DNA of 62,663 nt, taken from contig CAZKJF010000007.1 in the NCBI GenBank assembly GCA_964553025.1, forward strand, positions 1 to 62,663, in the 5' to 3' direction. Each line of letters begins with the position of its first letter. Positions within the stretch are counted from its first letter, which is position 1. The DNA comes from an uncultured Candidatus Saccharibacteria bacterium. GTDB taxonomy: Bacteria; Patescibacteriota; Minisyncoccia; 2-02-FULL-40-12; GWA2-44-9. The translations under genes were made by a program, and so were the position numbers. The notes below the pieces were generated by a model, which ran no database searches, had not been told where the DNA came from, and saw only the letters and a list, made by a program, of their open reading frames with translations. This document shows, one piece after another, positions 407 to 54,835 of the stretch.

Positions 407-1099
407 ATGAATGGTACCTCCATTATACTCATCCCGCCCGCCCCGTCAAGGGGCGGGCGGTTGCCAAAGGGCCCTCCCCGGGTGTATCGTAATCTCCGGT
501 ACATTCTCATGGCAATACGAGGCCGGTATGCGAGCGCGATTTCCGGCAGCCCGATCCTTCGGGCCGACACCACCCGAACTCTCTCGGTACCCGTTCTGAC
601 GAAACTCGGCCCGACCAAAAAGTCGCGGCTGATCGGCGAGATCCCGCTGGGTCCGGGCATCACCCTGAAGGCCTTCCACCTGACGACCGAACCGCTTCGC
701 CCGAACGGACCTACTGAATTCGTTCGGATAACCAAGACTGAACAGGTAGAGCGGGTACATCAAGGAACGCTTCAGCGGTTCGCGATTCCCGAATTGGTCA
801 CGATCCCCTTTCCGTTGATGCCGAATGTCGTTTCGGCCCTTCGGCGATTCACTCCGCTGGGACCGGACACCATGCTGGCGATTCTATCAGAACACCGGCT
901 TGCCGGCTGGCGCATTGCAATCCGGCGGGATCGTTCGCGGCTGATTATTCTCAAGGAAGTGACTGCCGCCAGTTCCCGGAGCATTGTCTCCGAGACGGGC
1001 CAAGGCGACACCAGCAGAGTGGTTGTACCGACAACCGCCGTCGAGCGGTTCCGGATCATTATGGAAACATGGAATACGCCGCTGCCGGCCGCCATCTGA
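407..1099 (+). CDS. hypothetical protein (GC-rich orphan; true start uncertain)
   Basis: 230-codon ORF with clear third-position G/C periodicity from about 590 onward and visibly higher GC than its neighbours. The first 50 or so codons overlap the divergent rRNA promoter, so an internal start (for example ATG 509) is possible. A hairpin follows at 1104-1128. No family recognised. Confidence 0.4.
   Translation: MNGTSIILIPPAPSRGGRLPKGPPRVYRNLRYILMAIRGRYASAISGSPILRADTTRTLSVPVLTKLGPTKKSRLIGEIPLGPGITLKAFHLTTEPLRPNGPTEFVRITKTEQVERVHQGTLQRFAIPELVTIPFPLMPNVVSALRRFTPLGPDTMLAILSEHRLAGWRIAIRRDRSRLIILKEVTAASSRSIVSETGQGDTSRVVVPTTAVERFRIIMETWNTPLPAAI
422..449 (-). promoter_or_regulatory. sigma70-type promoter reading toward the 16S gene (TTGACG-16 nt-TATAAT)
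   Basis: On the minus strand the -35 TTGACG is the complement of 444-449 and the -10 TATAAT is the complement of 422-427. This predicts a leader of about 190 nt to the 16S 5' end. The -35 sits in the loop of an 11-bp GC hairpin (434-460). Confidence 0.6.
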
Positions 1100-27974: not shown

Positions 27975-28823
27975 CTACTGGGTGCAGGAATTCCGCAGAT
28001 GCACAATTCCTGCTTTGTCGCGCTCCACGCACAGATCAGTGTACTCCATCATCAGTACACCGTCGATCTTGGCATTGGAGCCAGTGTTCTGCTTGCGGAA
28101 CCGGTATTCTGTTTCCGCCCATGGCACACATGCCGTCCGACCGGAACCAATGGTCAGGTCGCTTCCGTCCATGGCGATCATGGCTTCCGTATCATTCCGG
28201 ACACGAACCGAACCCGGCGTGCAGACGGAAGACTGCGGCATGGAGTACGAAACTTCTGATCCGGCTTCAGCAGCAACAGATCCTACCGAAGCCAATGCCG
28301 CACGTTGTGCGGCGGCTTCTTCAGCGAGAAGCTGAAGCTGCCGAGTGGCGGCTGTTTGAGCCACCATCATGTCAACATCCGGACGCGAGATGTTCATCGC
28401 CGTTGGAACCATGCGTTCCGTATTCTGGCGACGATGGCCGGCAATAGAATCCGCAATGATGCCCGCAACGGCGCCGATCGCGGCTCCCTTCAAGGTTCCG
28501 GAGACCCGACCATTACTGGCCATCGCTCCGATGACGGCACCGGCACCGGCCCCAAGGGCCGTACCGCCGCCGATTCTGATCCGAAGGGGACTGCCGAGGC
28601 GACGGCCGCTCAAAAGGGCCATAGCCATGAATGTCCCATCCTGAAGATAGTATCCGCGATATCCGCCGTAGACGGCGGAATACATCGCAAATTCCGCGGG
28701 GGAGATCTGCGACCGCGCTGCCAGGATTCGAGCCTGGTTGATCGCGATCGAGACGTTATCCTGGGCAGCCGCCGGAACGGCGGCTGCCAGAAACAAACAG
28801 AGAACTGCGAGTACAGGTTTCAT
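27975..28823 (-). CDS. secreted glycine-zipper protein (hypothetical, GC-rich)
   Basis: 282 aa: signal peptide MKPVLAVLCLFLAAAVPAAAQ, a glycine-zipper segment GGGTALGAGAGAVIGAM...GAAIGAVAGII, and a Cys-containing C-domain. Confidence 0.7.
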   Translation of the reverse strand: MKPVLAVLCLFLAAAVPAAAQDNVSIAINQARILAARSQISPAEFAMYSAVYGGYRGYYLQDGTFMAMALLSGRRLGSPLRIRIGGGTALGAGAGAVIGAMASNGRVSGTLKGAAIGAVAGIIADSIAGHRRQNTERMVPTAMNISRPDVDMMVAQTAATRQLQLLAEEAAAQRAALASVGSVAAEAGSEVSYSMPQSSVCTPGSVRVRNDTEAMIAMDGSDLTIGSGRTACVPWAETEYRFRKQNTGSNAKIDGVLMMEYTDLCVERDKAGIVHLRNSCTQ

Positions 28824-28876: not shown

Positions 28877-29108
28877 GGTGTCACCGGTGACATGTCACCA
28901 GTGACACCATCCAATTGTGAACGTGCTGTCACCTTGCTATGGCTACATTATATCAAATTTATACTGTTTTGTAAAGTGGTATAATATAGCCTAAAAACAC
29001 CGTTTTCAGGGGTGACGGGGTAACACACTGTAGTGTCATGGTGTCACCTGTCACCTCTGGCACTGGTGACACCTATTTTGACACCAGTGTCACCTATTCA
29101 GTGTCACC
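28877..29108. repeat. array of GTSAC cores (GGTGACA/TGTCACC heptamers), left array
   Basis: 11 exact GTGAC/GTCAC sites starting at 28880, 28887, 28894, 28901, 28928, 29012, 29043, 29050, 29066, 29089 and 29103. Includes a 32-bp near-palindrome at 28877-28908 and an AT-rich core at 28940-29000. Confidence 0.9.
28947..28975 (-). promoter_or_regulatory. candidate promoter TTTACA-17-TGaTATAAT for the glycine-zipper operon
   Basis: On the minus strand the -10 is the complement of 28947-52 with an extended TG, and the -35 is the complement of 28970-75. The 32-bp palindrome lies in the predicted 5' UTR. A plus-strand TGgTATAAT (28977-28985) sits back to back with it. Confidence 0.5.
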
Positions 29109-29110
29109 CC

Positions 29111-29482
29111 TTACTCAATATTTTTATAGTGTCGAATCTTTGCTACTTTATGCTTAAGATCAAGGGTAACCGCGACTACATCCATTTGCCACAGAGTTTC
29201 TTCTCCTAGACGATATTCGATCAGAAAAGTCCGGGCGATTCGTTCCATCCGAACCTGCTTGGCATGATTAACGCGAAGCTCCGGTTCAAATCCTGCCATC
29301 TCTCGGCTATTGGTTTTTACTTCAACCAGAACAACAACCCCTTCTTTTGACGCAATAATATCTGCCTCGCCCCACGGTTTTCGGTAGTTTTGAGCCAATA
29401 TACGATATCCCTTTTGGCTTAAATAGCGAGCCGCGTATCTCTCTCCCACCGCCCCGATAAAGATATGTCTATTTTGCGTCAT
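29111..29482 (-). CDS. yraN: YraN-family (UPF0102) endonuclease-like protein
   Basis: 123 aa. GERYAARYLSQKGYRILAQNYR...GEADIIA...VLVEVK is typical of the family. Confidence 0.85.
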   Translation of the reverse strand: MTQNRHIFIGAVGERYAARYLSQKGYRILAQNYRKPWGEADIIASKEGVVVLVEVKTNSREMAGFEPELRVNHAKQVRMERIARTFLIEYRLGEETLWQMDVVAVTLDLKHKVAKIRHYKNIE

Positions 29483-29524
29483 TCCCCCTTACTCTACCAC
29501 CAGAAAATCTATCCACAAACCCGA

Positions 29525-29553
29525 TTGACCAAGGGCTAGTTTTGTGATACCCT
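29525..29553 (+). promoter_or_regulatory. candidate promoter TTGACC-17-TGaTACCCT
   Basis: Read directly from the sequence. The same TGATACCCT 9-mer recurs upstream of gatC (54820-54828). Confidence 0.4.
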
Positions 29554-29580
29554 TAGAGCACGTTCTCGTCCAGAGAACTT

Positions 29581-30720
29581 TTGTCTTTGTTAAGGCCAAA
29601 TCCCATTTTTACAGACCTCAAAAAATCGTTGCGTCGCTTGCGCATTTCCGGTTCTACCGGCTATGCTGGCTTTAAAAAAGCAGCCACTCATAAAGGAGTC
29701 CAGTTGTATGCCACTATCGGTCTTGCACTTATCCTGATCGTCTTAAAAAGCCAAACCGGCGACGAATCAGGATTTTTTAATTCGGTTGTCCATCATTACA
29801 TCGAAGAGACATCAGCTGCCATCAATGCTTCGGGCCCCGATGACCAGTTAGCTGATATTAGCGGGTTGGCAGTCCAGCAAGATACTTCCGGCCGCGGATC
29901 GGATATTAACCTCCTCTCTTCTTCAATCCAGGAGAATTCAATCGTAGCTTCCGATCCGAGCTCAACCGATTACCTGACAAGTTTTTTGCCCAACAAAATA
30001 ATCGAATATACCGTACAGCCAGGCGACGCTATTTCATTTATTGCATCCGACTTCGGCGTGAGCGTGAATTCAATTATTTGGGCCAATAATTTAAAGAGTG
30101 CTGATGCAATTAGTCCTGGTCAAGTACTTAAAATCCCTCCAATTTCCGGAGTTATTCATACGGTTGCAAAAGGCGATACGGTTTCCAGTATTGCCAAAAA
30201 ATACAATGCAGATGCGGACAAAATTGTCGCTTTTAATGACATCAATGATAATCAATTAACGATCGGTAATGATATTGTAGTTCCTGCAGGAACTCCGGCC
30301 GGTTCCTCTAAAGTTTCTTCTTCATCAATCGTTGTCTCTACCGCTCAAAATTTTTCTCACCTCCCTGATCTTGGCGATTATTTCCTTATTCCGACAACCG
30401 GCTATGATTGGGGGATTATCCATGATCGAAACGGTGTAGATATAGCCAACTCTTGCGGTACGCCGATTCACGCGGCAGCTGACGGATCAGTCGCAATTGC
30501 ACTCTCTAGCGGCTGGAATGGCGGTTTCGGTGAATACATCAAATTGATCCACGGAAATGGCACTGAAACATTGTACGCTCACTTAAGTAAACTTTTTGTC
30601 AGTGCAGGAGAAACTGTCACCAAAGGTGAGACTATTGCGCTCATGGGCACAACTGGCCATTCAACAGGATGTCATCTCCATTTCGAAGTTCATGGCGCCA
30701 AGAATCCGCTTGCAAAATAG
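29581..30720 (+). CDS. LysM-domain M23 family metallopeptidase
   Basis: Two LysM repeats (YTVQPGDAISFIASDFGV, HTVAKGDTVSSIAKKYN) and a C-terminal M23 domain (HxxxD-type GVDIA..., GHSTGCHLHFEV). An alternative TTG start at 29704 is preceded by AAAGGAG. Confidence 0.9.
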   Translation: MSLLRPNPIFTDLKKSLRRLRISGSTGYAGFKKAATHKGVQLYATIGLALILIVLKSQTGDESGFFNSVVHHYIEETSAAINASGPDDQLADISGLAVQQDTSGRGSDINLLSSSIQENSIVASDPSSTDYLTSFLPNKIIEYTVQPGDAISFIASDFGVSVNSIIWANNLKSADAISPGQVLKIPPISGVIHTVAKGDTVSSIAKKYNADADKIVAFNDINDNQLTIGNDIVVPAGTPAGSSKVSSSSIVVSTAQNFSHLPDLGDYFLIPTTGYDWGIIHDRNGVDIANSCGTPIHAAADGSVAIALSSGWNGGFGEYIKLIHGNGTETLYAHLSKLFVSAGETVTKGETIALMGTTGHSTGCHLHFEVHGAKNPLAK

Positions 30721-32268
30721 TTAAACAGCTCCGGAAGCCACTTTTTCGTTGATTTTTAAACTCATCGCTTCGGCAATATGCTTTTCTCCAACATACTGAG
30801 AAGCGTCAAGATCGGCTATTGTACGGCCGATCTTTTTGATTTTATGGTATGTGCGCAATGATACATTCTTGGCTGAAATAAATTGCCTCAAGAGCGATTC
30901 GGCAGATGGAGTAAGGATACAGAATAAGTCTATGTTTTTGTAGCTAATTTCAGCATTATTTAAAATATCAGTTCCCAAAAAGCGCTTCTCTTGAATGGCT
31001 CGAGCTGCCGCTACCAAGTGTCTTACTTTTTTAAACTCCTCAAGGGGCATAAGATCGTTTGTTTTTTCGAACAGAGAGGTTTCTCGAGGGACGAGAACTT
31101 GGATATCAATACGATCCAAGAGGGGGCCTGATATTTTCTTTCGATAGCGAGTGATGTTAATCGGGGAACAGACGCATTCTTCACTGGAATTTCCCAAATT
31201 ACCGCATGGGCATGGATTCATAGCCCCTATAAGCATAGATTTGGCCGGTAGACGCACGGAACCCGCTGCACGTGAGACTGTGATCATTCCTTCTTCCAGC
31301 GGCTCTCTAAGGCCCTCTAAAACGTTTCTGGAGAATTCGGGTAATTCGTCGAGGAAAAGTACGCCACGATGGGCTAAGCTAATTTCGCCGGGCCGAGGAC
31401 TGCTTCCGCCGCCGACAATAGCGGCGGCGGAAGCAGTATGGTGAGGATTTCGGAAGGGCCGCTGATGGGGAAATACGCCGTTTTTAAGTAATCCAAGCGC
31501 GCTATATATCCGAGCAACTTCGATTGCTTCAGAAAATAACAGGGGAGGCAGTAAATCCATTAAAGACTTAGCCAAAAGCGTTTTTCCTGTTCCCGGCGGC
31601 CCGCTCATCAAGAGATTGTGGCCGCCGGAGGCGGCCACAATCAACGCTCTTTTAGCTGCATATTGACCCTTAATCATGCGAAACGAATCGCCGCCGCCCT
31701 GCTCATCTTCCAAGGAAGGCAGGAGAGTTCGCTCAGCTGGGGTAATAAGCAACTTTCCGGAAAGGTGAGAAATAACAGCAGTAATACTAGATACGCCAAA
31801 TATGGAAACACCTTCAACGACAGCTGCTTCGGCTTGATTGGCTGCAGGGACGAAGATTTCTTTAAAGCCGGCGTTTCGAGCCATTAAAGCGGCTGAAAGA
31901 ACACCATTTACGGCTTTTACTGAACCGTCCAAGGATAATTCTCCCAAAAAGAGTTTGTCCGAAGTCTGGAAAGAGACCTGCCGAGTCTCCAGGAGATACC
32001 CTACAGCAATGGGAAGATCATATGACGGCCCCTCTTTTCGAATATCAGCCGGCGCGAGGTTGATAATAATCTTTTTGTGTTTTGCGCTCGGAGGAGCGAG
32101 GCGGTTGGCCCGGATTGCCGAAGCAATCCGCTCTTTTGACTCTTGAACTGCCTTATCGGGCAACCCCACGATGCTGAAAGCATGCAAACCCGGCGTAGAG
32201 TCAACCTCAACCTCGATTAATTGAGCATCAATCCCGGTTATGGCGGCCGAAAACAATCGTACAGACAT
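30721..32268 (-). CDS. comM: Mg-chelatase-like ATPase ComM/YifB
   Basis: 515 aa: Lon-protease-like N-domain, Walker A GPPGTGKT, and a C-terminal Mg-chelatase subunit ChlI-like region. Confidence 0.95.
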   Translation of the reverse strand: MSVRLFSAAITGIDAQLIEVEVDSTPGLHAFSIVGLPDKAVQESKERIASAIRANRLAPPSAKHKKIIINLAPADIRKEGPSYDLPIAVGYLLETRQVSFQTSDKLFLGELSLDGSVKAVNGVLSAALMARNAGFKEIFVPAANQAEAAVVEGVSIFGVSSITAVISHLSGKLLITPAERTLLPSLEDEQGGGDSFRMIKGQYAAKRALIVAASGGHNLLMSGPPGTGKTLLAKSLMDLLPPLLFSEAIEVARIYSALGLLKNGVFPHQRPFRNPHHTASAAAIVGGGSSPRPGEISLAHRGVLFLDELPEFSRNVLEGLREPLEEGMITVSRAAGSVRLPAKSMLIGAMNPCPCGNLGNSSEECVCSPINITRYRKKISGPLLDRIDIQVLVPRETSLFEKTNDLMPLEEFKKVRHLVAAARAIQEKRFLGTDILNNAEISYKNIDLFCILTPSAESLLRQFISAKNVSLRTYHKIKKIGRTIADLDASQYVGEKHIAEAMSLKINEKVASGAV

Positions 32269-32307
32269 GTCAGGAATACAGCAGTTAAATCAAACAGGAA
32301 TACTGAC

Positions 32308-32337
32308 AGTATATATCAGATTACAAAAAACTGTCAT
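32308..32337 (-). promoter_or_regulatory. candidate proximal comM promoter ATGACA-18-TATACT overlapped by a 7-bp inverted repeat
   Basis: The -10 is the complement of 32308-13 and the -35 is the complement of 32332-37. The inverted repeat TGACAGT (32304-10) / ACTGTCA (32330-36) spans both boxes. Confidence 0.45.
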
Positions 32338-32343
32338 TTTTCA

Positions 32344-32487
32344 GAAAAAAAAGCAGCGCAGGTAGCGCTCTTTCGGTCAAAAATGAAAAGGGTAGAGAAA
32401 AAGCGACATCTGCGCTGTCTATTGTATGGCTGCCGGCGATCCGCAGCTAATTTCGAAACCGCTAGACAGCAATCATTACGAGGTACT
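32344..32487 (-). ncRNA. candidate ~140-nt small RNA or attenuating leader upstream of comM
   Basis: Starts just downstream of the distal promoter (32494-32522). Contains an 8-9 bp helix GCTGTCTA/TAGACAGC enclosing further stems. Ends in hairpin AGCGC-N5-GCGCT plus U8, where the U-run is the complement of the A-run at 32344-32351. Confidence 0.35.
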
Positions 32488-32493
32488 GAATAA

Positions 32494-32522
32494 AGTATAG
32501 AGTGAGAGGTGACAGGTGTCAA
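32494..32522 (-). promoter_or_regulatory. near-consensus promoter TTGACA-17-TATACT
   Basis: The -35 is the complement of 32517-22 and overlaps one GGTGTCA repeat. The -10 is the complement of 32494-99. Confidence 0.55.
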
Positions 32523-32681
32523 TGTAATTTGTGGATAAGGTGTCATTGGTGTCATGTGTCACCAATGACACCTCTGTCACCATAATTTTTTGGCTTTAAT
32601 TCTTAACTATTTTAGGTGACATAGTGACAGGTGACACTGTCACTATGTCATGGTGACAACAGTGCCATGTCACCTTGTCAC
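32509..32681. repeat. array of GTSAC cores (GGTGACA/TGTCACC heptamers), right array
   Basis: 10 exact GTGAC/GTCAC sites starting at 32509, 32558, 32576, 32616, 32624, 32631, 32639, 32653, 32669 and 32677, plus at least 4 GTCAT/GTCAA variants. Perfect inverted repeats of 13 bp (32539-51/32560-72) and 14 bp (32617-30/32637-50). AT-rich core at 32583-32613. Confidence 0.9.
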
Positions 32682-32688
32682 CATCCTA

Positions 32689-32729
32689 TCCACACCACCG
32701 CCCCGGTATAACCGGGGCGGTGGTGTGGA
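32689..32729 (-). terminator. 18-bp perfect GC-rich hairpin downstream of 32754-34100
   Basis: TCCACACCACCGCCCCGG-tataa-CCGGGGCGGTGGTGTGGA. No clear U-tract on either strand. Confidence 0.55.
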
Positions 32730-32753: not shown

Positions 32754-34100
32754 CTAAGACCCTACGGTTTGAGAGAAGAGCCGGATGGCATCAATTGCCG
32801 CAAACATTGCTTCCCTTGACCCGGCCATGATCAAGTATGACTTGCCTTGATACGATAAGATTCCATAATCAATCGAGGCATCGGGGAATGCAAAATTCTT
32901 GTAGCGAACCGAGGTGCCCTGATAATCGGTACTCAAGAAAGGATCAACATTTTTACTGGGTGTAATAGCAAAAAGGGAAGCAAGATCATTGGACATCGTT
33001 GGTTCCCAACTCTGCAGGGTTCCATAGGCCGGACTCGTTAATTCAGTAATGAAGACAAGGCGTTTTGCTCCTGTCGATGCTTGTGCTATCTTGCCGGCGC
33101 TGGTAAATGCTTCTTGCTGTCCGTAGACCAGAACAACCGAATCGCTGCCAATCAGATTGTTAATATCAGCCGGATAGTTGACGAGGAATCGGGAAAGAAG
33201 CTGAAAGGGCGTTAATGCAATCGTAGCATTGGCATCCGTAACCGTAATCTGCCCAAATAGCCCTAAAGAAGGAGTCACGCTGGTCTTATACGAGCTTAGG
33301 AATGCCTGAAGCGCATCCCCAGTAGCCGGCAATGCAATCGTGGCGGCCCGAGACGGAAAAATATCGCTTAACCGTACATTTACTGGCGTAGGTGTCGGCG
33401 TAACGGTTGGAGTCGGTGTTTCAACGACAACTTCTTCAGTATCACGAATAAAGAAGTACCAATACCCTCCGCCCAAAACGAGGGCAGCAGCTAAAATACT
33501 TAACAAAACAATAAGTGGACGGCGGGAAGTTCCACCGCCCAGGCCGGCTTCAGGCACTGAAAACTGACTCTTTGCTTCAGGAGCAGCAGGTTGGGGAGCG
33601 GGCGGCGTTTGACCAGGAATACGCGGCAAGAAAGGTGCCGGCGGAGACGACTGGGTGGGTCCTAGTGTGGCTGTAGGACCGGACGAGCGAGCTACTGGAG
33701 CAACCGGAACAGAATGTTGAGGGGTCGGTGTCGGCGTGGCAGGCATCGTAGGGGCCGTGGGGACCCTTCGCGGAGTAGTTATTCCCTGAAGCGGCTGTCC
33801 CGCTTTTAGCTTGCTAACATCATCATTCATGGTACGAATGTTCGATTGATATTCCCGAGGCTGAACTTGGGGTGCCGGAGAACCGGGAATAGTCGGCGCC
33901 GGTGAAGGAGCTGGTTTGGGAGCGGCAGGCGCGGGCCGAGAAACTGGCGCGGGTGATGGGGTATTGGGAGCCGTAGGAACAGACTGAGAAGGAGCGCTAG
34001 AAGTCGTTCCTCCGCCTTGCGGACGGCTCAATTCTTTAACCAATTCATCAATATTTACTTGCGGATTTGTCGGTGGATTCTGGCCCGGAACATCTGCCAT
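32754..34100 (-). CDS. proline-rich membrane-anchored protein (hypothetical)
   Basis: 448 aa: a roughly 190-aa Pro/Ala/Thr-rich low-complexity N-region, one TM helix (LIVLLSILAAALVLGGGYWYFFI), then a globular C-domain. Confidence 0.75.
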   Translation of the reverse strand: MADVPGQNPPTNPQVNIDELVKELSRPQGGGTTSSAPSQSVPTAPNTPSPAPVSRPAPAAPKPAPSPAPTIPGSPAPQVQPREYQSNIRTMNDDVSKLKAGQPLQGITTPRRVPTAPTMPATPTPTPQHSVPVAPVARSSGPTATLGPTQSSPPAPFLPRIPGQTPPAPQPAAPEAKSQFSVPEAGLGGGTSRRPLIVLLSILAAALVLGGGYWYFFIRDTEEVVVETPTPTVTPTPTPVNVRLSDIFPSRAATIALPATGDALQAFLSSYKTSVTPSLGLFGQITVTDANATIALTPFQLLSRFLVNYPADINNLIGSDSVVLVYGQQEAFTSAGKIAQASTGAKRLVFITELTSPAYGTLQSWEPTMSNDLASLFAITPSKNVDPFLSTDYQGTSVRYKNFAFPDASIDYGILSYQGKSYLIMAGSREAMFAAIDAIRLFSQTVGS

Positions 34101-41554: not shown

Positions 41555-41649
<95 letters not shown>

Positions 41650-41668
41650 GGAGAGAGCGGCCTCAATG

Positions 41669-41757
41669 CGGAGACGGGAGGATTCGAACCTCCGGTCCGG
41701 TTTTACCCGAACACCTCTTTAGCAAAGAGGTACATTAGACCACTCTGACACGTCTCC
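41669..41757 (-). tRNA. tRNA-Ser (GCU)
   Basis: Type II tRNA. Anticodon stem-loop CCTCT-TTGCTAA-AGAGG. No encoded CCA. Confidence 0.93.
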
Positions 41758-41783: not shown

Positions 41784-42491
41784 CTAGCCCCTGGCAATGA
41801 CAAGCGCGGAGACGGAAGCGGCGCCGGCCGCTTTCAGAACGGCGGCGCATTCATTCAGCGTCGCCCCGGTCGTACAGACATCGTCAACAATGAGCACATT
41901 GCGGCCGGCGCCGATTTTGCTGATGCAGGCAAACTGGCCGCGGGCGTTCTTGAACCGTTCAGACCGGTCGGATATTCGCGCTTGCGGCATTGCACGGACG
42001 GACCGCTCAAGCAGGGAACCAAAATCGGTTCGCAGCTGGCCGGAAATTCTTCGAGCAATAAGCTCCGACTGGTTAAACCCGCGCCAATTCTCGCGGCGGA
42101 CGTGCAAGGGAACATTGGTAAGAAGAAAACCCTCGCCGGCAAACGAAATCCGATGGAGCGCTGATTGGTTTCGAATGTATGTTACCGCCCAATCCCCAAG
42201 CGGATCGGCCAATTCCGGCAGAAATTTATACTTAAACCCATGGATCGCGGCATGCACGACCGGATGACGATAATCGCTCGCGACGAAAAATCGAGTGATG
42301 GCGCACTCCGCTTTGCAGCCCGAACAGGTAAACCCGCCGGGTGAACTCTGGCGGCAGCCAATGCATTCAAGACGGAATTGAAGCGGCACGCTCCGAAAGC
42401 AGGCAGAGCAGAGGTATGCACGCTCGAGAAACGCACCGCAGCCCAGGCAGCGATAGGGGAATATCAGGTCGGCAATTCGGCGAATCAGCAT
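41784..42491 (-). CDS. comFC: ComF-family protein (ComFC, phosphoribosyltransferase fold)
   Basis: 235 aa. N-terminal 4-Cys zinc motif (CLGCG...CSAC) and a C-terminal PRT motif LIVDDVCTTGATL. Confidence 0.85.
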   Translation of the reverse strand: MLIRRIADLIFPYRCLGCGAFLERAYLCSACFRSVPLQFRLECIGCRQSSPGGFTCSGCKAECAITRFFVASDYRHPVVHAAIHGFKYKFLPELADPLGDWAVTYIRNQSALHRISFAGEGFLLTNVPLHVRRENWRGFNQSELIARRISGQLRTDFGSLLERSVRAMPQARISDRSERFKNARGQFACISKIGAGRNVLIVDDVCTTGATLNECAAVLKAAGAASVSALVIARG

Positions 42492-42582
42492 ATGGGGATA
42501 ATTCAGCGCACCGGAATTTCTGTTCTGTGATATACTCTATTGTATACAAATCGGCTCCGTGACGCTACGGACGCATTCATCA

Positions 42583-43626
42583 ATGGCTCTATTCGGTCCC
42601 AGCAGCACAATCGGCATCGATATCGGCACTGCCGCCATCAAAATCATCGAGCTTACCAAGAAAAGCAACCGCTTTCATTTGAAAAATTACGGCCTCTTTG
42701 AAATCAAAAGCATTTCTGGCGCGAGCACCGATCAAAGCATTTTGAAGCTGCCGGATGATGAAATCGCCTGGGGCATTAAAGAACTTCTCAAAAAATCAAA
42801 GATCGGCGGCCATAACGTGGTGGCATCGATTCCATCTTTCTCGACATTTGCCACTGTCATTGAAATGCCATACCTCTCCGAAGCGGAACTTGCTAAGGCG
42901 CTTCCGTTTGAAGCCCGCAGATACGTACCGATTCCTCTGGATGAAGTCGTACTCGATTGGTCAATCATCGGCATCACCGGCCAAGGCCCCAAACCGACGG
43001 TTGAAGTGTTCGTTGCGGCAGTGCCGAAAGACGAAACCGTCCGCTATCAGACGATCATGGCCAAAGCCGGCCTCACGCTCAAAGCTTTAGAACTAGAAAA
43101 TTCAGCTCTTGCCCGCGCCGTAATCGGCAACGATCTTTCGCCGACTGCGGTAATCAACATCGGCGGACGCAGTACTTCAATCATTATCATTAACAAAGGA
43201 TACGAACGGCTTTCTCATAACTATGAGGTTGGGGGCTTTGAGATTACGAAGTCTATCGCTCGCTCTTTGAATGTCAGCATCGAGAAGGCCGAAGAACTCA
43301 AAAAAACGCTGGGACTCAAGCAGATTGACGAAAATATCATTAACGAAGCCATGTCGTCGCTCATTGATATGATGGCCTTTGAGACTCGAAAAACCATCAC
43401 TGCCTACGAAACTTCAAAAAACCAGAAAATTTCGCGAATCATACTGGTCGGCGGGATGGCCAACATGCCAAACTTCCTCGAATATTTCAAGCAAAAACTC
43501 GGCCAAGACGTGATAATCGGCAATCCCTTCACCCGCATCGTCTACCCCCAGGCACTCGGCCCGGTAATCGGCGAACTGGCCAGTACGTTTTCAGTTGCTA
43601 CCGGCCTGGCTATGCGCGATATTTAG
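42583..43626 (+). CDS. pilM: type IV pilus assembly ATPase-fold protein PilM
   Basis: Actin-like fold N-terminus IGIDIGTAAIKIIEL. The track ORF opens at GTG 42559; ATG 42583 is preferred. Confidence 0.85.
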   Translation: MALFGPSSTIGIDIGTAAIKIIELTKKSNRFHLKNYGLFEIKSISGASTDQSILKLPDDEIAWGIKELLKKSKIGGHNVVASIPSFSTFATVIEMPYLSEAELAKALPFEARRYVPIPLDEVVLDWSIIGITGQGPKPTVEVFVAAVPKDETVRYQTIMAKAGLTLKALELENSALARAVIGNDLSPTAVINIGGRSTSIIIINKGYERLSHNYEVGGFEITKSIARSLNVSIEKAEELKKTLGLKQIDENIINEAMSSLIDMMAFETRKTITAYETSKNQKISRIILVGGMANMPNFLEYFKQKLGQDVIIGNPFTRIVYPQALGPVIGELASTFSVATGLAMRDI

Positions 43627-43680
43627 AAATTGTTGATAAAGCCCTAACCTCAACGCTCAATACGTTGTATACTATATAGT

Positions 43681-44244
43681 ATGGCTGATAAAGGAGGTAT
43701 CCAGCTTCTTCCGGAGACACGCAAAAGCATTGTCGTTACCACTCCGGGAGAGAACAAGATTATTTATTTCGGAATCGCAGTATTGGCGATCGTTTTGGCC
43801 GTGTACGGGGGAGTATGGTGGTATGGTAATCGCCTTGATCAAAAGCTTGATGCCGCCAACGCGGCACTCGTCAATTTGGAAAACGAACGTAACCTGCAAA
43901 CAGAAGGCGCCCTCTTGACCTTATCCCAGCAAATGAATACTGCCACTCAAATCGTTAAAAATCACACGTATTGGTCTCAAGGCCTCTCCAAAATTGAAGC
44001 AGCCCTTCAAAACAAAGTACAATTCGTAAATTTTTCCGGTCAAACTGAAGATAACACGTTCCGTTTTGAGGCTATTACGGATTCTTATTCGACGCTTGCC
44101 CGCCAACTTGCGGCATTCGTTGTCGATGATTCCGTTGAAGATATTACGCTGGATAACGTCAGCATTCAAACGACGGGCAAACTTGATGTGACTGCGCACG
44201 TCAAGTTTAAACCTGAAAAATTCTTAAAGAAGGAATTAAAATAA
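43681..44244 (+). CDS. pilN: PilN-like pilus assembly protein
   Basis: 187 aa with a single TM helix (IIYFGIAVLAIVLAVYGGVWWY) followed by a coiled coil. Position follows pilM. Confidence 0.7.
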   Translation: MADKGGIQLLPETRKSIVVTTPGENKIIYFGIAVLAIVLAVYGGVWWYGNRLDQKLDAANAALVNLENERNLQTEGALLTLSQQMNTATQIVKNHTYWSQGLSKIEAALQNKVQFVNFSGQTEDNTFRFEAITDSYSTLARQLAAFVVDDSVEDITLDNVSIQTTGKLDVTAHVKFKPEKFLKKELK

Positions 44245-44245
44245 C

Positions 44246-44770
44246 ATGAAGGCCTATCTTGGAGCATTGATCGTTGTCGCCGCCGCATTTATTTTTTGGT
44301 CTTTTGTTATGCCTGGGTATGATCACATCTCTGCGGCCCGCGAAGCCGTGTCCGCCCGAGAGGCGGAATTGACGCAACGAACCTCATTGATTGATCAGAT
44401 CAATGACTGGGCGCAACAATATTCGCAGCGCTCTGCAGACGTCTCTCGTTTTTCCTATATAGTTCCGGAGAATAAAAGCTCGGCGGAATTAGTCTCAATG
44501 CTCGAAACTATCGTACGCCAAAGCGGTTTGACTCTCAATGGCATTTCCCTGGGGAATATTGACCCCAACAATCAAGGCGCGGCCTACCAGACACAAGGAA
44601 TTGACCTGACGATAACCGGCACCTACTCTGCTTTCCGATCATTTCTTTCCGCCCTTGAACAGAACATCAGAATTATTGATATTACTTCGATAAACGGCGC
44701 TCCTGTCGGCGCTGAAAGTTCGGATATCCAATTCCGCCTTAAGGCAAATACATATTTCTTGAATCAATAA
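44246..44770 (+). CDS. pilO: PilO-like pilus assembly protein
   Basis: 174 aa with an N-terminal TM helix, a coiled coil and a C-terminal alpha/beta domain. Called from gene order. Confidence 0.7.
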   Translation: MKAYLGALIVVAAAFIFWSFVMPGYDHISAAREAVSAREAELTQRTSLIDQINDWAQQYSQRSADVSRFSYIVPENKSSAELVSMLETIVRQSGLTLNGISLGNIDPNNQGAAYQTQGIDLTITGTYSAFRSFLSALEQNIRIIDITSINGAPVGAESSDIQFRLKANTYFLNQ

Positions 44771-44771
44771 C

Positions 44772-45053
44772 ATGCCATCTCCCGTATCTTCAACAAACCG
44801 CCTCTATGTCTTACTGATCATGATTCTTGGTATTGTGCTTGGTTATATCTATTACAACCAATATGTACAGCCCAATGAAGTTCCCGTTGCCGCTTCGCCA
44901 GTCAAAGAGACTGATACTTTGAAAGATTTTCAGAATATCCGACTTGATTTCTCGGTTCTTGATGCTGCTGTTTACAAGAACCTCCAAATCTTCGGCGAGG
45001 TTCCTGTCGTGCCGGGAGCGACTGGCAAGCGCGACATTTTTGCTCCATTCTAA
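44772..45053 (+). CDS. small membrane protein of the pilus operon (PilP-position)
   Basis: 93 aa with one TM helix, tightly packed between pilO and pilB. Confidence 0.6.
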   Translation: MPSPVSSTNRLYVLLIMILGIVLGYIYYNQYVQPNEVPVAASPVKETDTLKDFQNIRLDFSVLDAAVYKNLQIFGEVPVVPGATGKRDIFAPF

Positions 45054-45068
45054 TATGGCCTGTTTCGT

Positions 45069-46829
45069 ATGCCACAATTTTTGCCCACAACTCTTCTGGA
45101 CGAACTTGTCCGGACAAATGTAATCTCCCAATCCCAAGCCGACTCTTTCGTCGCCGCGGCCCAAAAAGACGAGAAAGACGTCGGCCAAGTTCTTATTGAT
45201 CAAGGCATCCTAACCGATGAAGGCCTTGCCGAATTCAAATCAAATCTTTACCATCTCCCGATCGTTAAACTCGAAGAGATTGAACTGAATCGAGACGTTC
45301 TCAAAGAAATCGCGGATAATGTCGTTTCCTTTTACAAAGTAGTACCGTTTGCCAAAGAAGACAACGTCTTGAAGGTCGGCATCATCAATCCCGAAAACGT
45401 CGAAGCGCTGGAAGCGCTTAAATTCATCGCCGCCAACAAGGGCCTGTCGCTCGAGAAATATATTATCAGCTACAAAGATTTTAATGCGATCACCCGCAAC
45501 TATCGGACTCTCTCGGGGGAGGTGAGCCAGGCCCTGGAATCCCTCAATGAAGAATTCCAGAAAAAGAGCACTCAAAATGTTCAGACGCTTGAAGAAATTA
45601 CCGCCGAAGCTCCGATTACGCGCATTGTGGCGGTCATCATCCGCCACGCCGTTGACTCGCGCGCATCCGATATTCACATCGAGCCCTTTGAAGATCGCGT
45701 CCGAGTCCGCTTCCGCATTGACGGTGTTTTGACGATCGCGCTTACGCTTCCCAAGAACCTCCAATCGGCCGTTTCCACCCGCATCAAAATTTTATCTGAT
45801 TTGAAAATTGACGAAACCCGGCTTGCCCAAGACGGTCGTTTTGCCACACGGATCAACGATCGAAAAGTCGACTTCCGTGTCTCAACATTCCCGACGAAAG
45901 GCGGCGAGAAGGTCGTCATGCGTATTTTGGATCCGCTCTCGGGAAGCACGACCCTGACGGACCTGGGCCTGGAAGGGCGCTCCATGGAAGTCCTAGAGCG
46001 AGCAATCGCCAAACCGTTCGGCTCGATCCTCATCACTGGTCCGACAGGGTCGGGTAAATCAACGACCTTGGCCGGCATGCTTAAACGCATAAACACGGAT
46101 GACGTAAATATTGTTACGCTTGAAGACCCGATCGAATATTTCGTGGACGGCGTGAACCAGTCGCAAGTCCACGAGGAGATCGGCTATACGTTCGCTTCCG
46201 GTTTGCGCCACATCCTTCGCCAAGACCCTGACATTATCATGGTCGGCGAAATCCGCGACAGTGAGACCGCCGGTCTTGCCACGCAAGCTGCTTTGACCGG
46301 CCATATCGTACTTTCTACGCTCCACACCAACGATGCCATCGGCGTCGTGCCCCGCCTTATCGACATGGGTGTCGAGAAATACCTGATCCCGTCCACGCTC
46401 AACGTGGCTGCCGCCCAGCGTCTGTTGCGGCGCCTCTGCCCGGAGTGCAAACTTCAGCAAAAAGCCAATCAGGCCGAATCGAGCATTATCGAAGAAGCTC
46501 TGAAAGCTATGCCGGAGGAATACCAAAAACAATATCTCGCCAAAGACGGATACGCCATCTGCAAACCAAACGTCGGCCAAAAAGAAAACGTGTGCCGCCA
46601 TTGCGGCGGCAAAGCGTTCAAGGGCCGCATTGGCATCTTCGAAATGCTTGAAATGACGCCTGAATTTGAGAAAATCATCCTTGGTACCATCTCCGAAGCA
46701 GCCATGCGTCAAGAAGCTAAACGGCAAGGAATGATTACCATGTTCCAGGACGGCATTTTAAAAGTATTGAAAGGCATTGTATCATTAGAGGAGTTGCTTG
46801 AGGTCGCTCAAGCAGGAGATTCAGCATAA
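45069..46829 (+). CDS. pilB: type IV pilus assembly ATPase PilB (GspE family)
   Basis: 586 aa with Walker A GPTGSGKST, Asp and His boxes, and a tetracysteine motif CPEC...CRHCGG. Confidence 0.95.
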   Translation: MPQFLPTTLLDELVRTNVISQSQADSFVAAAQKDEKDVGQVLIDQGILTDEGLAEFKSNLYHLPIVKLEEIELNRDVLKEIADNVVSFYKVVPFAKEDNVLKVGIINPENVEALEALKFIAANKGLSLEKYIISYKDFNAITRNYRTLSGEVSQALESLNEEFQKKSTQNVQTLEEITAEAPITRIVAVIIRHAVDSRASDIHIEPFEDRVRVRFRIDGVLTIALTLPKNLQSAVSTRIKILSDLKIDETRLAQDGRFATRINDRKVDFRVSTFPTKGGEKVVMRILDPLSGSTTLTDLGLEGRSMEVLERAIAKPFGSILITGPTGSGKSTTLAGMLKRINTDDVNIVTLEDPIEYFVDGVNQSQVHEEIGYTFASGLRHILRQDPDIIMVGEIRDSETAGLATQAALTGHIVLSTLHTNDAIGVVPRLIDMGVEKYLIPSTLNVAAAQRLLRRLCPECKLQQKANQAESSIIEEALKAMPEEYQKQYLAKDGYAICKPNVGQKENVCRHCGGKAFKGRIGIFEMLEMTPEFEKIILGTISEAAMRQEAKRQGMITMFQDGILKVLKGIVSLEELLEVAQAGDSA

Positions 46830-46837
46830 TCACACCT

Positions 46838-47908
46838 ATGGATAATCCTAAAAAATATCTCGAAGAACTTTTGGTCGAAACCGCCCGCAGCAATGCCTCT
46901 GATTTGCATTTGTCGCCCGCATATTATCCGACACTCCGCATTGACGGCCGACTGGTGCCGCTCACCAACCGCGAAATTTTAAGCCAAGATATTCTCAGCG
47001 GGGTGATCAACGCCCTCTTGGGGGAGGAACGGGCAGCGCGCTTTGCAACCGAAAAAGAAGCTGACTTTTCCGTTTCCGCGCCTGGCGATATCCGGTTCCG
47101 AGTTAATGTCTACCAGACAAACGGCGGGCCTGCAGCAGCCCTGCGGCTGATTCCAAAGGACATAAAGAAAATCGAAGACTTGAATCTGCCGCCCGTCTTG
47201 CGGGTGTTTACGAAGCTCTCCCAAGGATTCGTTCTTGTCGTAGGTCCGAACGGCCACGGCAAATCAACAACCATGGCCAGCCTAATTGACGAGATCAACC
47301 ACGAGCGAGGAGACAAGATCGTTACGATCGAAGATCCGATCGAATATCTGTTCACGCCCGACAAAAGCATCATTGACCAGCGAGAGGTTCCCCAAGACAG
47401 CTTATCTTTCGACCGCGCATTGCGCTCTACCTTCCGCGAAAACGTAAACGTTGTCATGATCGGTGAAATGCGCGACCAAGAAACGATGAGCGCGGCGGTA
47501 AGTGCCGCTGAAACAGGCCACCTCGTTTTCGCATCCCTCCACACGAACAGCGCTTCGCAAACGATTGAGCGCATTATCGACAGTTTCCCGGCGAGCCAGC
47601 AATCTCAAATTAGAACTCAATTAGCCAGCACGCTTTCAGGCATCGTATCCCAACGCCTCATTCCACGCATCCAAGGCGGATTAATTCCGGCGGTAGAGGT
47701 GCTTATCGCGACGACGGCCGTTCGTACGCTTATTCGAGATAACCGTCCCCAGCAGCTTGATCTGGTTATTGAGACTAGCCAAGACGTGGGAATGATCTCA
47801 TTGGATAAATCATTGGCTGGATTAGTGAACCGAAAAGAAATCACCATGGAACAAGCCGAATTCTATTCGATCAACCCGAAAAACTTGAGAAACTATCATG
47901 GAGTTTAA
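46838..47908 (+). CDS. pilT: twitching-motility retraction ATPase PilT
   Basis: 356 aa with Walker A GPNGHGKST and IGEMRD, consistent with PilT size and layout. Confidence 0.93.
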   Translation: MDNPKKYLEELLVETARSNASDLHLSPAYYPTLRIDGRLVPLTNREILSQDILSGVINALLGEERAARFATEKEADFSVSAPGDIRFRVNVYQTNGGPAAALRLIPKDIKKIEDLNLPPVLRVFTKLSQGFVLVVGPNGHGKSTTMASLIDEINHERGDKIVTIEDPIEYLFTPDKSIIDQREVPQDSLSFDRALRSTFRENVNVVMIGEMRDQETMSAAVSAAETGHLVFASLHTNSASQTIERIIDSFPASQQSQIRTQLASTLSGIVSQRLIPRIQGGLIPAVEVLIATTAVRTLIRDNRPQQLDLVIETSQDVGMISLDKSLAGLVNRKEITMEQAEFYSINPKNLRNYHGV

Positions 47909-49109
47909 TTACCAAGCTAAAAATCCGGCAGGTCAGATCAGCGAAGGCGTTATTAACGCGCCCGATGAGAATACGGCTGTTTCGATTCTGCACAATAAAG
48001 GCCTCGTCGTGTTCTCGCTCAATCCGGTCAAAAAAGACCTTCTGAATGTCGATGTTAATCATCTCTTCGCTCACGTCAACAACAAAGACATCGTAGTTTT
48101 CACACGCCAGCTGGCCACGCTCGTCGAAGCCGACATGCCGATTGCCGAAGGCCTGCGCACGCTCGCCGCCCAAATCGAGAAACCGCCATTCAAAAAAGTC
48201 ATACTTGATGTCGCATCGCGCGTGGAAGCAGGCACCTCGCTGTCCGGCGCCTTGGCTGTCTATCCCAAATTCTTCTCTTCGTTCTACATCAAACTGACCC
48301 AAGCAGGGGAAGTATCCGGCAAACTCCAAGGTTCATTGTTGTATCTTGCCGATTATTTGGAACGCAGCCAAGGCATCAACTCGAAAATCCGCGGCGCATT
48401 AACATACCCGGCGTTCGTAGTGGCTGCCCTCATCATCGTAGCCGGTATCATGGGCGTCTACGTATTGCCCCAGCTGCTTTCCGTCTTTAAAGATTCAGGG
48501 ATTACCGATCTGCCGGTAACAACGAGGATCCTGATTGCAGTAACCAACTTCGTAAACGCTTACCTGTATTACATCTTGGGAATCGTTGTTATCGGCGGAT
48601 TTATTGTAGTCCGCTTCATACGAAGTGCCGAAGGGAAAGTTTGGCTTGACGATATCATGATCAAGGCGCCGGCAATCGGCATCGTCGTTCGCAACCTCTT
48701 CCTGGCCCGTATCGGCGAAAGTCTTTCCACGCTCGTAAAATCCGGCATCCCAATTCTGGATTCGCTTCAAATCACGGCAGACTTGGTTGGAAACACGAAT
48801 TATCGAAATATTATGCTGGCGGCTCAAGACCAAGTTCGCGGCGGCGGCAAAATATCCGAAATTCTGGTACAGCATACGATTGAAATACCCCCGCTCTTTG
48901 CGTCAATGGTTGCAATCGGCGAACGCACCGGCAAACTCGACTACATGCTTGAGCATGTCGCTAAATTCTACAAATCGGAATCTGAAAACACGATTAACAC
49001 CATTACCCAGCTCCTGGAACCAGTCATCGTGCTTATCCTCGGTTTTGCCGTCGCCATTCTCGTTTCGAGTATCCTTCTTCCGATTTACAGTTTGGTCGGC
49101 GGCTCATAG
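47898..49109 (+). CDS. pilC: type IV pilus platform protein PilC (GspF family)
   Basis: 403 aa with two GspF repeats and 3 TM segments. Confidence 0.93.
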   Translation: MEFNYQAKNPAGQISEGVINAPDENTAVSILHNKGLVVFSLNPVKKDLLNVDVNHLFAHVNNKDIVVFTRQLATLVEADMPIAEGLRTLAAQIEKPPFKKVILDVASRVEAGTSLSGALAVYPKFFSSFYIKLTQAGEVSGKLQGSLLYLADYLERSQGINSKIRGALTYPAFVVAALIIVAGIMGVYVLPQLLSVFKDSGITDLPVTTRILIAVTNFVNAYLYYILGIVVIGGFIVVRFIRSAEGKVWLDDIMIKAPAIGIVVRNLFLARIGESLSTLVKSGIPILDSLQITADLVGNTNYRNIMLAAQDQVRGGGKISEILVQHTIEIPPLFASMVAIGERTGKLDYMLEHVAKFYKSESENTINTITQLLEPVIVLILGFAVAILVSSILLPIYSLVGGS

Positions 49110-49241
49110 CCTACCTGTTGATATCTGTCGCTTGTGCTTCCAAGCAGGGGAATTATAATGGAGGTAAAGTAACTAAGATGCTTCTGGGCCGGAATTTCTT
49201 CGCTACGCAATCGGAGAATATTTTACCAGGGCTTTCCTACA

Positions 49242-49757
49242 GTGTTAACGTATAAACGATTGTCTCGAGGATTCACGCTAGTCGAGTTGTTGGTCGTGAT
49301 CGCTATTATCGGCGTCTTGGCCACCTTGCTCTTGCTCCAGCTCGGCGTCGCCCGCGCCAAAGCCCGTGATGCGAAGCGCATTGCCGACGTCAACCAGCTC
49401 CGCACAATGGCCGAGCTCTACTTTGACGACAACGGCGGTCACTATCCGACTGCGCTCAATATCACAAATCTTGGAAAGTATGTAACTTCAAGCGCCTTGC
49501 CAGTTGATCCTGTAACGGCGGCCGGTTACTTCTACGCCTATAACGGCAGCACGAATCCGACTCAATTCCATATCTGGACAGAACTTGAGCAGAAGAACGC
49601 TTCAGCGTTAGGTGCCGATGCTGACATTAACTCTACCGGCTGGTCCGGCGATGCTCTCAATGCCGGTGCAACAACTGGTACAGGGTCTGAAGTCTGTACT
49701 GCTGCATATGCTGCCGGTGCCGCTCGCGATTGCGTCTACGATCAAGGCCAGAAATAG
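49242..49757 (+). CDS. major type IV pilin
   Basis: Class III signal [10 protein letters not shown]|[20 protein letters not shown] start; strong terminator follows. Confidence 0.9.
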
Positions 49758-49767
49758 TCTTACATCA

Positions 49768-49806
49768 CAAACTCCCCGCCACATGGCGGGGAGTTTGTTT
49801 CTTTCG
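49768..49806 (+). terminator. rho-independent terminator after the pilin gene
   Basis: CAAACTCCCCGCC-acat-GGCGGGGAGTTTG followed by TTTCTTTCG. Confidence 0.85.
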
Positions 49807-49818
49807 TATAATACAGCT

Positions 49819-51560: not shown

Positions 51561-51561
51561 C

Positions 51562-52813: not shown

Positions 52814-52816
52814 CCC

Positions 52817-54817: not shown

Positions 54818-54835
54818 CATGATACCCTAACAGCC

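Follow-up and report, generated by a model that had tools for sequence, protein, structure and literature searches.

A conserved GGTGACA repeat array upstream of comM in CPR bacteria overlaps the predicted promoter of a small RNA

Upstream of comM, in a 62.6 kb stretch of genome from an uncultured Candidatus Saccharibacteria bacterium (contig CAZKJF010000007.1; "the window" below means this whole stretch), lies an array of short repeats that we refer to as the right or primary array (32508–32682). It contains eight exact copies of GGTGACA or its complement TGTCACC and seven further TGACA/TGTCA cores, 15 in total and in both orientations. Related genomes carry the array at the same syntenic place, and its promoter is predicted to belong to a small RNA of no described family and not directly to comM. 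The explanation that we favor, and hold with about as much belief as doubt, is that the array would be a conserved multi-site operator for one cooperative, sequence-specific DNA-binding protein, with input from DnaA. Judged by its sequence, the array is a variant of multi-copy operator or iteron arrays, and the putative module belongs to a clade of the candidate phyla radiation (CPR, or Patescibacteria). These bacteria make up a large, almost uncultured share of bacterial diversity, have minimal genomes and are thought to depend on genes for DNA uptake and recombination. Hardly any cis-regulatory element or regulator has, to our knowledge, been defined by experiment in this group.

An earlier reading made from the letters alone (the sequence-only reading) had pointed to the 485-bp gap upstream of comM, and the coordinates of the open reading frames confirm this distance. 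The same reading had described the repeats by their GTSAC cores. All ten exact cores are indeed located within the array (starts at 32509, 32558, 32576, 32616, 32624, 32631, 32639, 32653, 32669 and 32677), but GTSAC did not hold up as the unit. Since GTSAC alone is not enriched across the window (56 occurrences against 67 expected), the signal is the clustering of a longer word. When 150 TGACA cores from 15 arrays were aligned, an asymmetric unit, t-GGTGACA, emerged, with a G before the core in 133 cases, a second G in 112 and a preceding T in 84. The unit of the right array is therefore better described as the 7/8-mer t-GGTG(A/T)CA than as the palindromic GTSAC. GGTGACA occurs 23 times in the window, compared to 3.8 ± 2.0 times in shuffled sequence, and none of 100 shuffles reached 23. 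Seventeen of these copies lie inside two arrays, eight in the right array and nine in a left array at 28877–29108, and the six stray copies are close to chance expectation. Only GGTGACA and its overlapping shifts attain at least five copies per 300 bp anywhere in the window.

The right array consists of two clusters separated by an AT-rich core. The promoter-proximal cluster (32539–32581) is composed of five GGTG(T/A)CA units with an exact 9-bp period (starts at 32539, 32548, 32557, 32566 and 32575). The core that the sequence-only reading had seen splitting the array spans 33 bp (32582–32614, 15% GC) and holds a conserved AAAGCCA word on the minus strand. The promoter-distal cluster (32615–32682) has a convergent arrangement. 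We could also locate the reported perfect inverted repeats of 13 and 14 bp: the 13-nt arms lie within 17-nt arms of 94% identity (32538–32554 and 32557–32573), and the 14-nt arms (32617–32630 and 32637–32650, 100% identity, 6 nt apart) are part of the distal cluster, as is the described GGTGACA-9 nt-TGTCACC unit (32652–32674). Because one asymmetric word stands in both orientations, these inverted repeats are largely automatic, and only a few complementary spacer bases exceed what the word itself provides. In the pooled arrays, the word occurs in both orientations and also as unpaired direct repeats; the commonest direct spacing is 8 bp, and overall spacings range from 6 to more than 30 bp. 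This combination of both orientations with partnerless direct repeats argues that the sequence is conserved, and not a hairpin.

To compare upstream regions, as the sequence-only reading had proposed, we drew a first set of relatives from a ComM search of species-representative genomes and a second sample from metagenome contigs chosen by ComM similarity only (56–91% identity). The closest matches among the species-representative genomes were metagenome-assembled genomes of Candidatus Paceibacterota / Yanofskybacteria (87–57% identity), and remoter matches came from Saccharibacteria and Eubacteriales. By these matches, the source of the window is a CPR bacterium similar to Paceibacterota/Yanofskybacteria. 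A GGTGACA cluster was present upstream of comM in nine of nine close relatives and in none of the distant ones. In the sample chosen by ComM, the array stands at the same syntenic place, 450–1250 bp before comM, in all loci whose upstream sequence extends to about 900 bp or more. The genes around it follow one collinear order in every relative: NYN, PNPase, membrane protein, array, small RNA, comM, M23/LysM peptidase, yraN and, further on, tsaE and polA. The 28 distinct relative loci with enough upstream sequence contain 4–12 exact copies each within 45–270 bp. Taken together, their primary arrays cover 4458 bp and hold 217 exact copies (49 per kb), compared to 38 copies in 228,870 bp outside (0.17 per kb), and 23 of these 38 belong to the secondary arrays of two loci, L001 and L006. 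The motif census thus shows positional bias in the relatives and two clusters in the window, and the word is not a genome-wide filler.

The layout of the array is also shared. Read toward comM, it comprises an inverted DnaA-box-like element, a cluster of the form >> <<, the AT-rich core, a cluster of the form >> >, the element TTATC(C/A)AC, the -35 hexamer, the copies in the spacer and the -10 hexamer. In the relatives, the distal cluster consists of 1–3 copies pointing right followed by 1–5 pointing left. The AT-rich core measures 33–50 bp and contains an AAGCCA word in most cases, extended to the palindrome TGGCTT..AAGCCA in L270 and L281. The proximal cluster contains 2–4 mostly right-pointing copies, the last of which abuts TTATC(C/A)AC(A), and 8–11 A/T-rich bases separate this element from the -35 hexamer. 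The rest of the intergenic DNA can no longer be aligned from one relative to another, while word, number and layout persist; the copies are therefore maintained individually. Such persistence is what selection on binding sites produces.

The array overlaps a predicted sigma-70-type promoter on the minus strand (TTGACA-17-TATACT, 32494–32522), which matches the consensus at 11 of 12 positions, in agreement with the sequence-only reading. Inside the spacer of this promoter lies a TGTCACC copy (32508–32514), for which the -35 hexamer serves as the degenerate partner of an inverted pair (TTGACA-cc-TGTCACC). Twenty-five of the 28 relative promoters (window excluded) also contain a spacer copy, 24 as exact TGTCAC and one (L274) as a variant; the word thus recurs inside the -35/-10 region of orthologous promoters, the position by which a repressor operator is recognized. 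The spacers measure 17–18 bp and, in these 25, hold one or two TGTCACC copies (or a variant), the second of which often abuts the -10 hexamer (TATAAT or TATACT). Matches of 11 out of 12 are rare, with only five in 62.6 kb, two of them in the arrays and one ahead of the 16S rRNA gene. At two loci, the GGTGACA word is therefore tied to exceptionally strong predicted promoters. The match ahead of the 16S rRNA gene (TTGACG-16-TATAAT, 449..422, minus strand) precedes the 5' end of the 16S rRNA by about 200 bp; it is likely the rRNA promoter and has no GGTGACA copy.

Conserved DnaA-box-like 9-mers, which the sequence-only reading had missed, bracket the array. A perfect DnaA-box 9-mer, TTATCCACA, is located 8 nt upstream of the -35 hexamer (32530–32538, minus strand), and TTATC(C/A)AC stands at the same position in every relative examined. 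At the distal edge, a 9-mer with one mismatch, CTATCCACA (TGTGGATAg; 32686–32694, plus strand), is inverted with respect to the proximal box, and about half of the relatives have similar elements there (TGTGGATA / TGTTTATAACCTGT). DnaA-type boxes are not enriched across the window (14 against 10.2 expected); it is one perfect and one single-mismatch box that enclose the array and its AT-rich core. The fixed position of the proximal 9-mer beside the -35 hexamer suggests DnaA as a second input.

The sequence-only reading had assigned the TTGACA-17-TATACT promoter to comM. This assignment did not survive, since the promoter is followed by a terminated RNA of about 145 nt, and in most relatives a DksA/TraR-type gene also precedes comM. 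With a conserved terminated RNA directly behind it, the promoter would at best be an indirect promoter of comM. In the predicted small RNA (32344–32488, minus strand), a variable middle hairpin separates helix 1 from the terminator helix. The RNA ends in an intrinsic terminator with a GC-rich stem and eight T (32344–32369, minus strand). Across the relatives, this RNA is non-coding and 110–195 nt long. We aligned 22 homologues and built a covariance model from them, which matches the window at 32350–32488 with 48.9 bits. Helix 1 comprises 13 base pairs, at which compensatory exchange is apparent: for example, one pair is GC in 11 and AU in 10 sequences, and another is CG in 10, UA in 7 and AU in 3. 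In the alignment, 94.8% of the cells are paired, compared to 35–53% with slid partners, and 14 pairs show changes on both sides, compared to 7.0 ± 1.5 in shuffles, none of which (0 of 500) reached 14.

The covariance model found one copy per locus, including loci on which it had not been trained (L276 with 88.7 bits, L275, L005, L261, L268 and L271). Examples of its position elsewhere are L281 4245–4374, L270 3966–4095, L002 5379–5497 and L276 9–133. The model detected no small RNA in L004 or in the distant relatives and no paralogous RNA after the second arrays. A search against Rfam 15 gave no family for the small RNA: neither the gathering threshold nor E ≤ 10 brought up a match in the window, and 15 relatives likewise had none. 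In L004 (5600–5880, identical to L255), where the small RNA was not detected, several repeat copies are changed to GGTGCCAC/GTGGCACC. Site and binder may have co-evolved into a variant form in this relative.

comM itself would be transcribed from a separate, weaker promoter (ATGACA-18-TATACT, 10 of 12; 32308–32337, minus strand), which is predicted downstream of the small RNA terminator in the window and also in L001. A TGACAGT/ACTGTCA inverted repeat had been reported at this promoter. The repeat is present, but it lacks the defining GG of the word, is already broken in L001 (87% identical) and is absent from L004 and L006; it probably reflects nothing more than the -35/-10 region. In most relatives, a gene for a DksA/TraR C4 zinc-finger protein of about 118 aa with its own promoter stands between the small RNA and comM. 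This promoter is of the TACCAT/TACTAT type and is followed by a very short leader (L002 5632–5988, L005 5623–5979, L007 5545–5898, and equivalents in L003 and L008). L001, L004, L006 and the window lack the DksA/TraR gene, and a search through the 62 kb of the window did not find it elsewhere either.

The left or secondary array (28877–29108) includes among its nine exact copies four contiguous heptads (28879–28906). Its AT-rich core contains a predicted promoter, TTTACA-17-TATAAT with a TG element (11 of 12; 28947–28975, minus strand), that reads into a gene for a predicted secreted Gly-zipper protein (27975–28823), and also a terminator-like hairpin of yraN. Repeat copies lie upstream of this promoter, and a palindromic block of four heptads (28877–28908) falls into the 5' leader. 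In L003, a copy is again found within the spacer of the promoter of the Gly-zipper gene. Strong secondary arrays occur only in the window, in L001 after yraN (7376–7604) and in L006 (= L257) directly after comM (7592–7748); those in L002 (9351–9381) and L003 (9296–9327) are weak, and the other loci have none. This distribution marks the secondary arrays as lineage-specific, mobile in position and not ancestral, and suggests that the regulon of the binder was expanded in some lineages. The proposal that one factor reads the TGACA cores remains the most economical one for the left and right arrays; it does not extend to the repeat at the proximal comM promoter, where the GG of the word is missing. 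The core of the left array contains a second promoter-like site on the plus strand (TTTATA-16-TATAAT with TG, 10 of 12; 28958–28985), back to back with the minus-strand promoter and antisense into yraN. The GC content is 45.7% in the stretch between the two arrays (28877–32682), which holds yraN, comM and the M23/LysM peptidase gene, compared to 51–52% in the flanks.

If the array is an operator, the approximately 15 t-GGTG(A/T)CA copies would serve as binding sites of a single DNA-binding protein. The conservation of the word in both orientations, the partnerless direct repeats and the packing at 7–9 bp point to double-stranded DNA read by one protein, and this packing suggests that the protein may be small and may bind cooperatively. 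Since the spacer copy paired with the -35 hexamer stands in an operator position, we infer repression: the bound protein would exclude RNA polymerase and thereby occlude the promoter. The upstream clusters could add cooperativity, or wrapping, around the AT-rich core. Through the DnaA-box 9-mer 8–11 nt upstream of the -35 hexamer and the second, inverted one at the far edge, DnaA would probably contribute a cell-cycle input. The transcript under control would not be comM but the structured small RNA, which is about 145 nt long and has a terminator of its own. In the lineage of the window, the same protein would have gained a second target in the left array, namely the promoter of the Gly-zipper gene.

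Several points weigh against this explanation. Pfam scans of the neighbours revealed no transcription factor gene and no candidate binder adjoining the array in the window or in the relatives. The sign of the regulation, repression or activation, is derived from position only, and three relatives (L013, L258 and L271) have no copy in the spacer. The small RNA promoter and the ends of the RNA are predictions. The window covers 62.6 kb of the genome and the relatives about 11–13 kb each, and further arrays may exist beyond these limits. Finally, 10–15 sites within 175–270 bp, combined with an AT-rich core and inverted DnaA-like boxes, are more elaborate than an ordinary operator and resemble an iteron origin.

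A locally encoded binder was considered and rejected. The gene upstream of the array encodes a proline-rich membrane protein of 448 aa, the DksA/TraR gene is absent from the window, and ComM is ordinary in length and domains. The only helix-turn-helix protein of the window is encoded 27 kb from the array. As only a lead, tight packing of this kind may be tolerated by ribbon-helix-helix proteins (omega, ParG, MetJ) or by the winged-helix domains of helicase-initiators. We also eliminated a sigma factor that reads the word as a -35 element: the word needs GG where the -35 hexamer has TT, and RNA polymerase is therefore not its reader. The possibility that the copies are low-affinity DnaA sites was discarded as well, as the word matches the DnaA box at only five of nine positions, with the mismatches in the CCACA part (by inspection). 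An invertible promoter was dismissed since near-identical contigs contain no inverted variants and the closest inverted pair encloses only about 30 bp.

This putative control region is deeply conserved and unusually elaborate, with a precise word and layout, a putative DnaA-box input and, as its predicted output, a structured small RNA beside competence genes. The array could be used as bait for finding the binding protein, and its sequence signature should help to recognize the module in further genomes. It also offers a testable link between cell-cycle signalling through DnaA and the genes for DNA uptake and recombination.

Fis sites at rRNA promoters are the model for an activating array. 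By analogy, the same protein could bind the upstream clusters and bring RNA polymerase to a stable-RNA promoter or stimulate it there, which would make the array an enhancer and not an operator; we consider this unlikely. Most copies do lie upstream of the -35 hexamer, spread over about 170 bp beside an AT-rich tract, and the promoter falls into the same strength class as the rRNA promoter, with a transcript that is non-coding and probably abundant. However, the spacer copy in 25 of 28 relatives, often with a second copy abutting the -10 hexamer, occupies a position that normally blocks the polymerase, and a promoter this close to consensus (11 of 12 positions) hardly requires activation. The palindromic block of four copies in the left array stands downstream of the start site, in the position of a roadblock, and the rRNA promoter (449..422) is without any copy.

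A further possibility is that the array is an origin-like unwinding or replication-control element. It might act as an origin, secondary or specialised, or titrate DnaA in the manner of datA/DARS. This also appears improbable to us. Origins of self-loading helicase-initiators are defined by 6–12 short iterons and a central AT-rich region with at least two oppositely pointing iterons per side (PMC9371898). The layout of the array fits this definition, including the two opposed groups that flank the AT-rich region, and it is accompanied by a perfect, positionally invariant DnaA box and an inverted distal box. A second array is found no more than 3.4 kb away in L001, L006 and the window, such that comM, which encodes a hexameric AAA+ helicase, is flanked by arrays. 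Contigs from the IMG/VR database also contain GGTGACA arrays of the same layout beside VapE/D5/Prim-Pol primase-helicase genes.

In contrast, the strand asymmetry of the window provides no sign of an origin. The GC skew is -0.043 to the left of the array and -0.047 to the right, with no switch over 62 kb, and the cumulative GC skew falls monotonically across the window except for a 4-kb blip. The array is embedded in a 22-kb block of mostly co-oriented genes, with collinear synteny in all relatives. Since neither skew nor gene orientation switches, an origin-like role is disfavoured. Pfam scans of the window and the relatives found no dnaA, dnaN, Rep or primase-helicase gene near the array, and the second array is missing in most relatives. 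The array as oriC was rejected on these grounds, namely no skew switch, no divergent gene orientation and no dnaA or dnaN nearby. The C-terminal origin-binding region of VapE has no homologue in six-frame translations of the window and 13 loci (phmmer and hidden Markov model searches, nothing better than E = 2). Moreover, a control word, GTGGACA, gave at least six copies in 50 of 120 loci of viral contigs, compared to 41 of 120 for GGTGACA. As the control word yields as many viral arrays, the shared word is a product of the search and not evidence of homology. With the control word equally frequent and no homologue of the origin-binding domain, we rejected homology with the origins of mobile elements and retained them as an architectural analogy only.

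A specific form of this idea would be a host-domesticated chromosomal origin-like element of CPR bacteria, made up of the inverted DnaA boxes, about 10–15 iterons, the AT-rich core and, in some lineages, a second array that brackets the gene of the ComM helicase. A dedicated initiator-like protein and DnaA would open or titrate the DNA there, coupling the cell cycle or the state of DNA uptake to the small RNA and the competence helicase. We regard this version as quite improbable. If it were true, the module would represent a type of replication-control or helicase-loading locus that is not known from any bacterial chromosome, and under the origin-like reading more generally it would constitute a new class of chromosomal element.

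The ori/crr sites of phage P4 contain TGTTCACC octamers that are bound by the alpha protein. P4 ori/crr and the origin recognized by Rep of Staphylococcus aureus pathogenicity islands (SaPI) are examples of the origins of self-loading helicase-initiators. In origins of this class, 6–12 very short repeats form two opposed groups around a central AT-rich stretch, as they do in the CPR array (PMC9371898). As in P4, some CPR lineages have a second array a few kb away with a helicase gene in between. Unlike the SaPI and P4 origins, the CPR array does not belong to a mobile element but to a stretch of core chromosome whose gene order is collinear in every relative; its loci lack a Rep or primase-helicase gene, a homologue of the origin-binding domain and a switch in skew or orientation; and it has a repeat in the spacer of a promoter. 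BLAST searches of the array against plasmids and phages gave no match, and narrow queries of the literature brought up nothing relevant to the motif or to CPR origins. In IMG/VR, we also observed GGTGACA arrays split by an AT-rich core directly beside VapE/D5/Prim-Pol/Toprim genes, on viral or mobile contigs with 46–70% GC (L114 8533–8806, L100 9438–9703, L076 1168–1386, L065 4482–4727, L098 1479–1735, L042 3396–3662 and L123 3046–3289); these arrays are presumably the origins of the respective elements. A 42-bp unit, GGTGACA-N4-TGTCACC-N5-GGTGACA-N5-TGTCACC, recurs in several prophage-like contigs (L034, L043).

Non-origin loci with DnaA boxes are represented by datA and DARS of E. coli and by the DnaA-box clusters of B. 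subtilis. As at DnaA-box-controlled promoters and such loci, the CPR module has the consensus TTATCCACA conserved outside an origin, at a fixed place just upstream of the -35 hexamer. Unlike datA/DARS and the B. subtilis clusters, it has only one or two putative boxes, and the bulk of the array is a different word (5/9 match). The GTSAC cores also recall half-sites of matS (GTGACRNYGTCAC), the target of MatP, and one exact matS-type 13-mer is found at 32631–32643. In enterobacteria and vibrios, however, matS sites are single and dispersed over the terminus domain, and the spacing of pairs in the CPR array usually differs. We rejected matS/MatP, since the single 13-mer is a by-product of two adjacent copies.

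Alternatively, a small protein of the ribbon-helix-helix type might coat contiguous repeats of 7–9 bp and use the array as a centromere-like or chromosome-organising site, for segregation or nucleoid organisation combined with repression. We give this a very low probability. The omega/ParB protein of plasmid pSM19035 binds 7-bp WATCACW heptads, and in parC of plasmid R1 repeat clusters flank a promoter core, an arrangement that recurs in the clusters of the left array. The functional unit of the omega system consists of at least four contiguous heptads in any orientation (PMC9499535), and contiguous repeats of this kind are present in the four heptads at 28879–28906 and the five units of 9-bp period at 32539–32581; in addition, 8 bp is the commonest direct spacing. 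Arrays for ribbon-helix-helix proteins (omega, ParG, ParR-parC, MetJ metboxes) resemble the CPR array in their units of 7–9 bp, direct and inverted and partly contiguous, that lie over or flank strong promoters (PMC9499535), and the omega heptad shares a TCAC core with the CPR word. However, the spacing in the CPR array is irregular, from 6 to more than 30 bp, while omega needs gap-free heptads, and an AT-rich core of 33–50 bp splits the array. No ParA-type ATPase or ribbon-helix-helix gene is adjacent in the window or the relatives. The products encoded downstream are a non-coding RNA, in some relatives a DksA/TraR zinc-finger protein, and ComM, and not a ribbon-helix-helix/ParA operon; the target is a small RNA gene, and DnaA-like boxes form part of the module.

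We attach less weight still to a structural role of the inverted repeats, in which hairpins formed by the RNA or the DNA (terminators, processing sites, cruciforms) would matter when transcription reads through from the upstream gene, and not the word as a protein-binding site; we consider this highly improbable. The window does contain perfect inverted repeats of 13–14 nt with short loops, palindromes extend beyond the word in L265, L270, L281 and L260, and the distal cluster of the left array lies in the 3' region of yraN before a terminator-like hairpin. However, every copy in every lineage shows the same 7-mer with no arm-by-arm covariation, many direct copies have no partner, the upstream gene is already followed by a separate strong hairpin, its likely terminator (32689–32729), and Rfam returned only spurious matches to miRNA hairpins. 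Finally, although a short palindrome-prone word clustered in intergenic DNA might recall selfish dispersed filler (repetitive extragenic palindromes or mosaics thereof, REP/BIME, or miniature inverted-repeat transposable elements, MITE), this is scarcely credible given only two clusters in 62.6 kb with strays near chance, one syntenic position across ComM identities of 56–91% and essentially empty flanks in 28 relatives.

The genes around the array identify the window as core chromosome, with the 5' end of a 16S rRNA gene, 13 tRNA genes, polA, tsaE, fpg, holA, recG, pnp, rpsO and infB. The comM gene (30721–32268, minus strand) encodes a ChlI N-terminal domain, a Mg-chelatase AAA+ domain and a C-terminal domain, a product of the usual length and domains. 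The gene for the proline-rich membrane protein (32754–34100, minus strand; open reading frame call and domain scan) is followed by a perfect 19-bp hairpin found by inverted-repeat search, which is likely its terminator. The window also contains a comFC-like gene and type IV pilus genes. These genes (pilM, pilO, a pilB-type ATPase and others) form a cluster at 41784–57125, 9–25 kb from comM, and the neighbourhood of comM is thus rich in DNA-uptake genes. This block is encoded on the plus strand and has the same negative GC skew as the surrounding minus-strand genes. ARAGORN predicted a tRNA-Ser with the unusual anticodon ACT (41559–41649, minus strand) that adjoins a tRNA-Ser(GCT) at 41668–41757.

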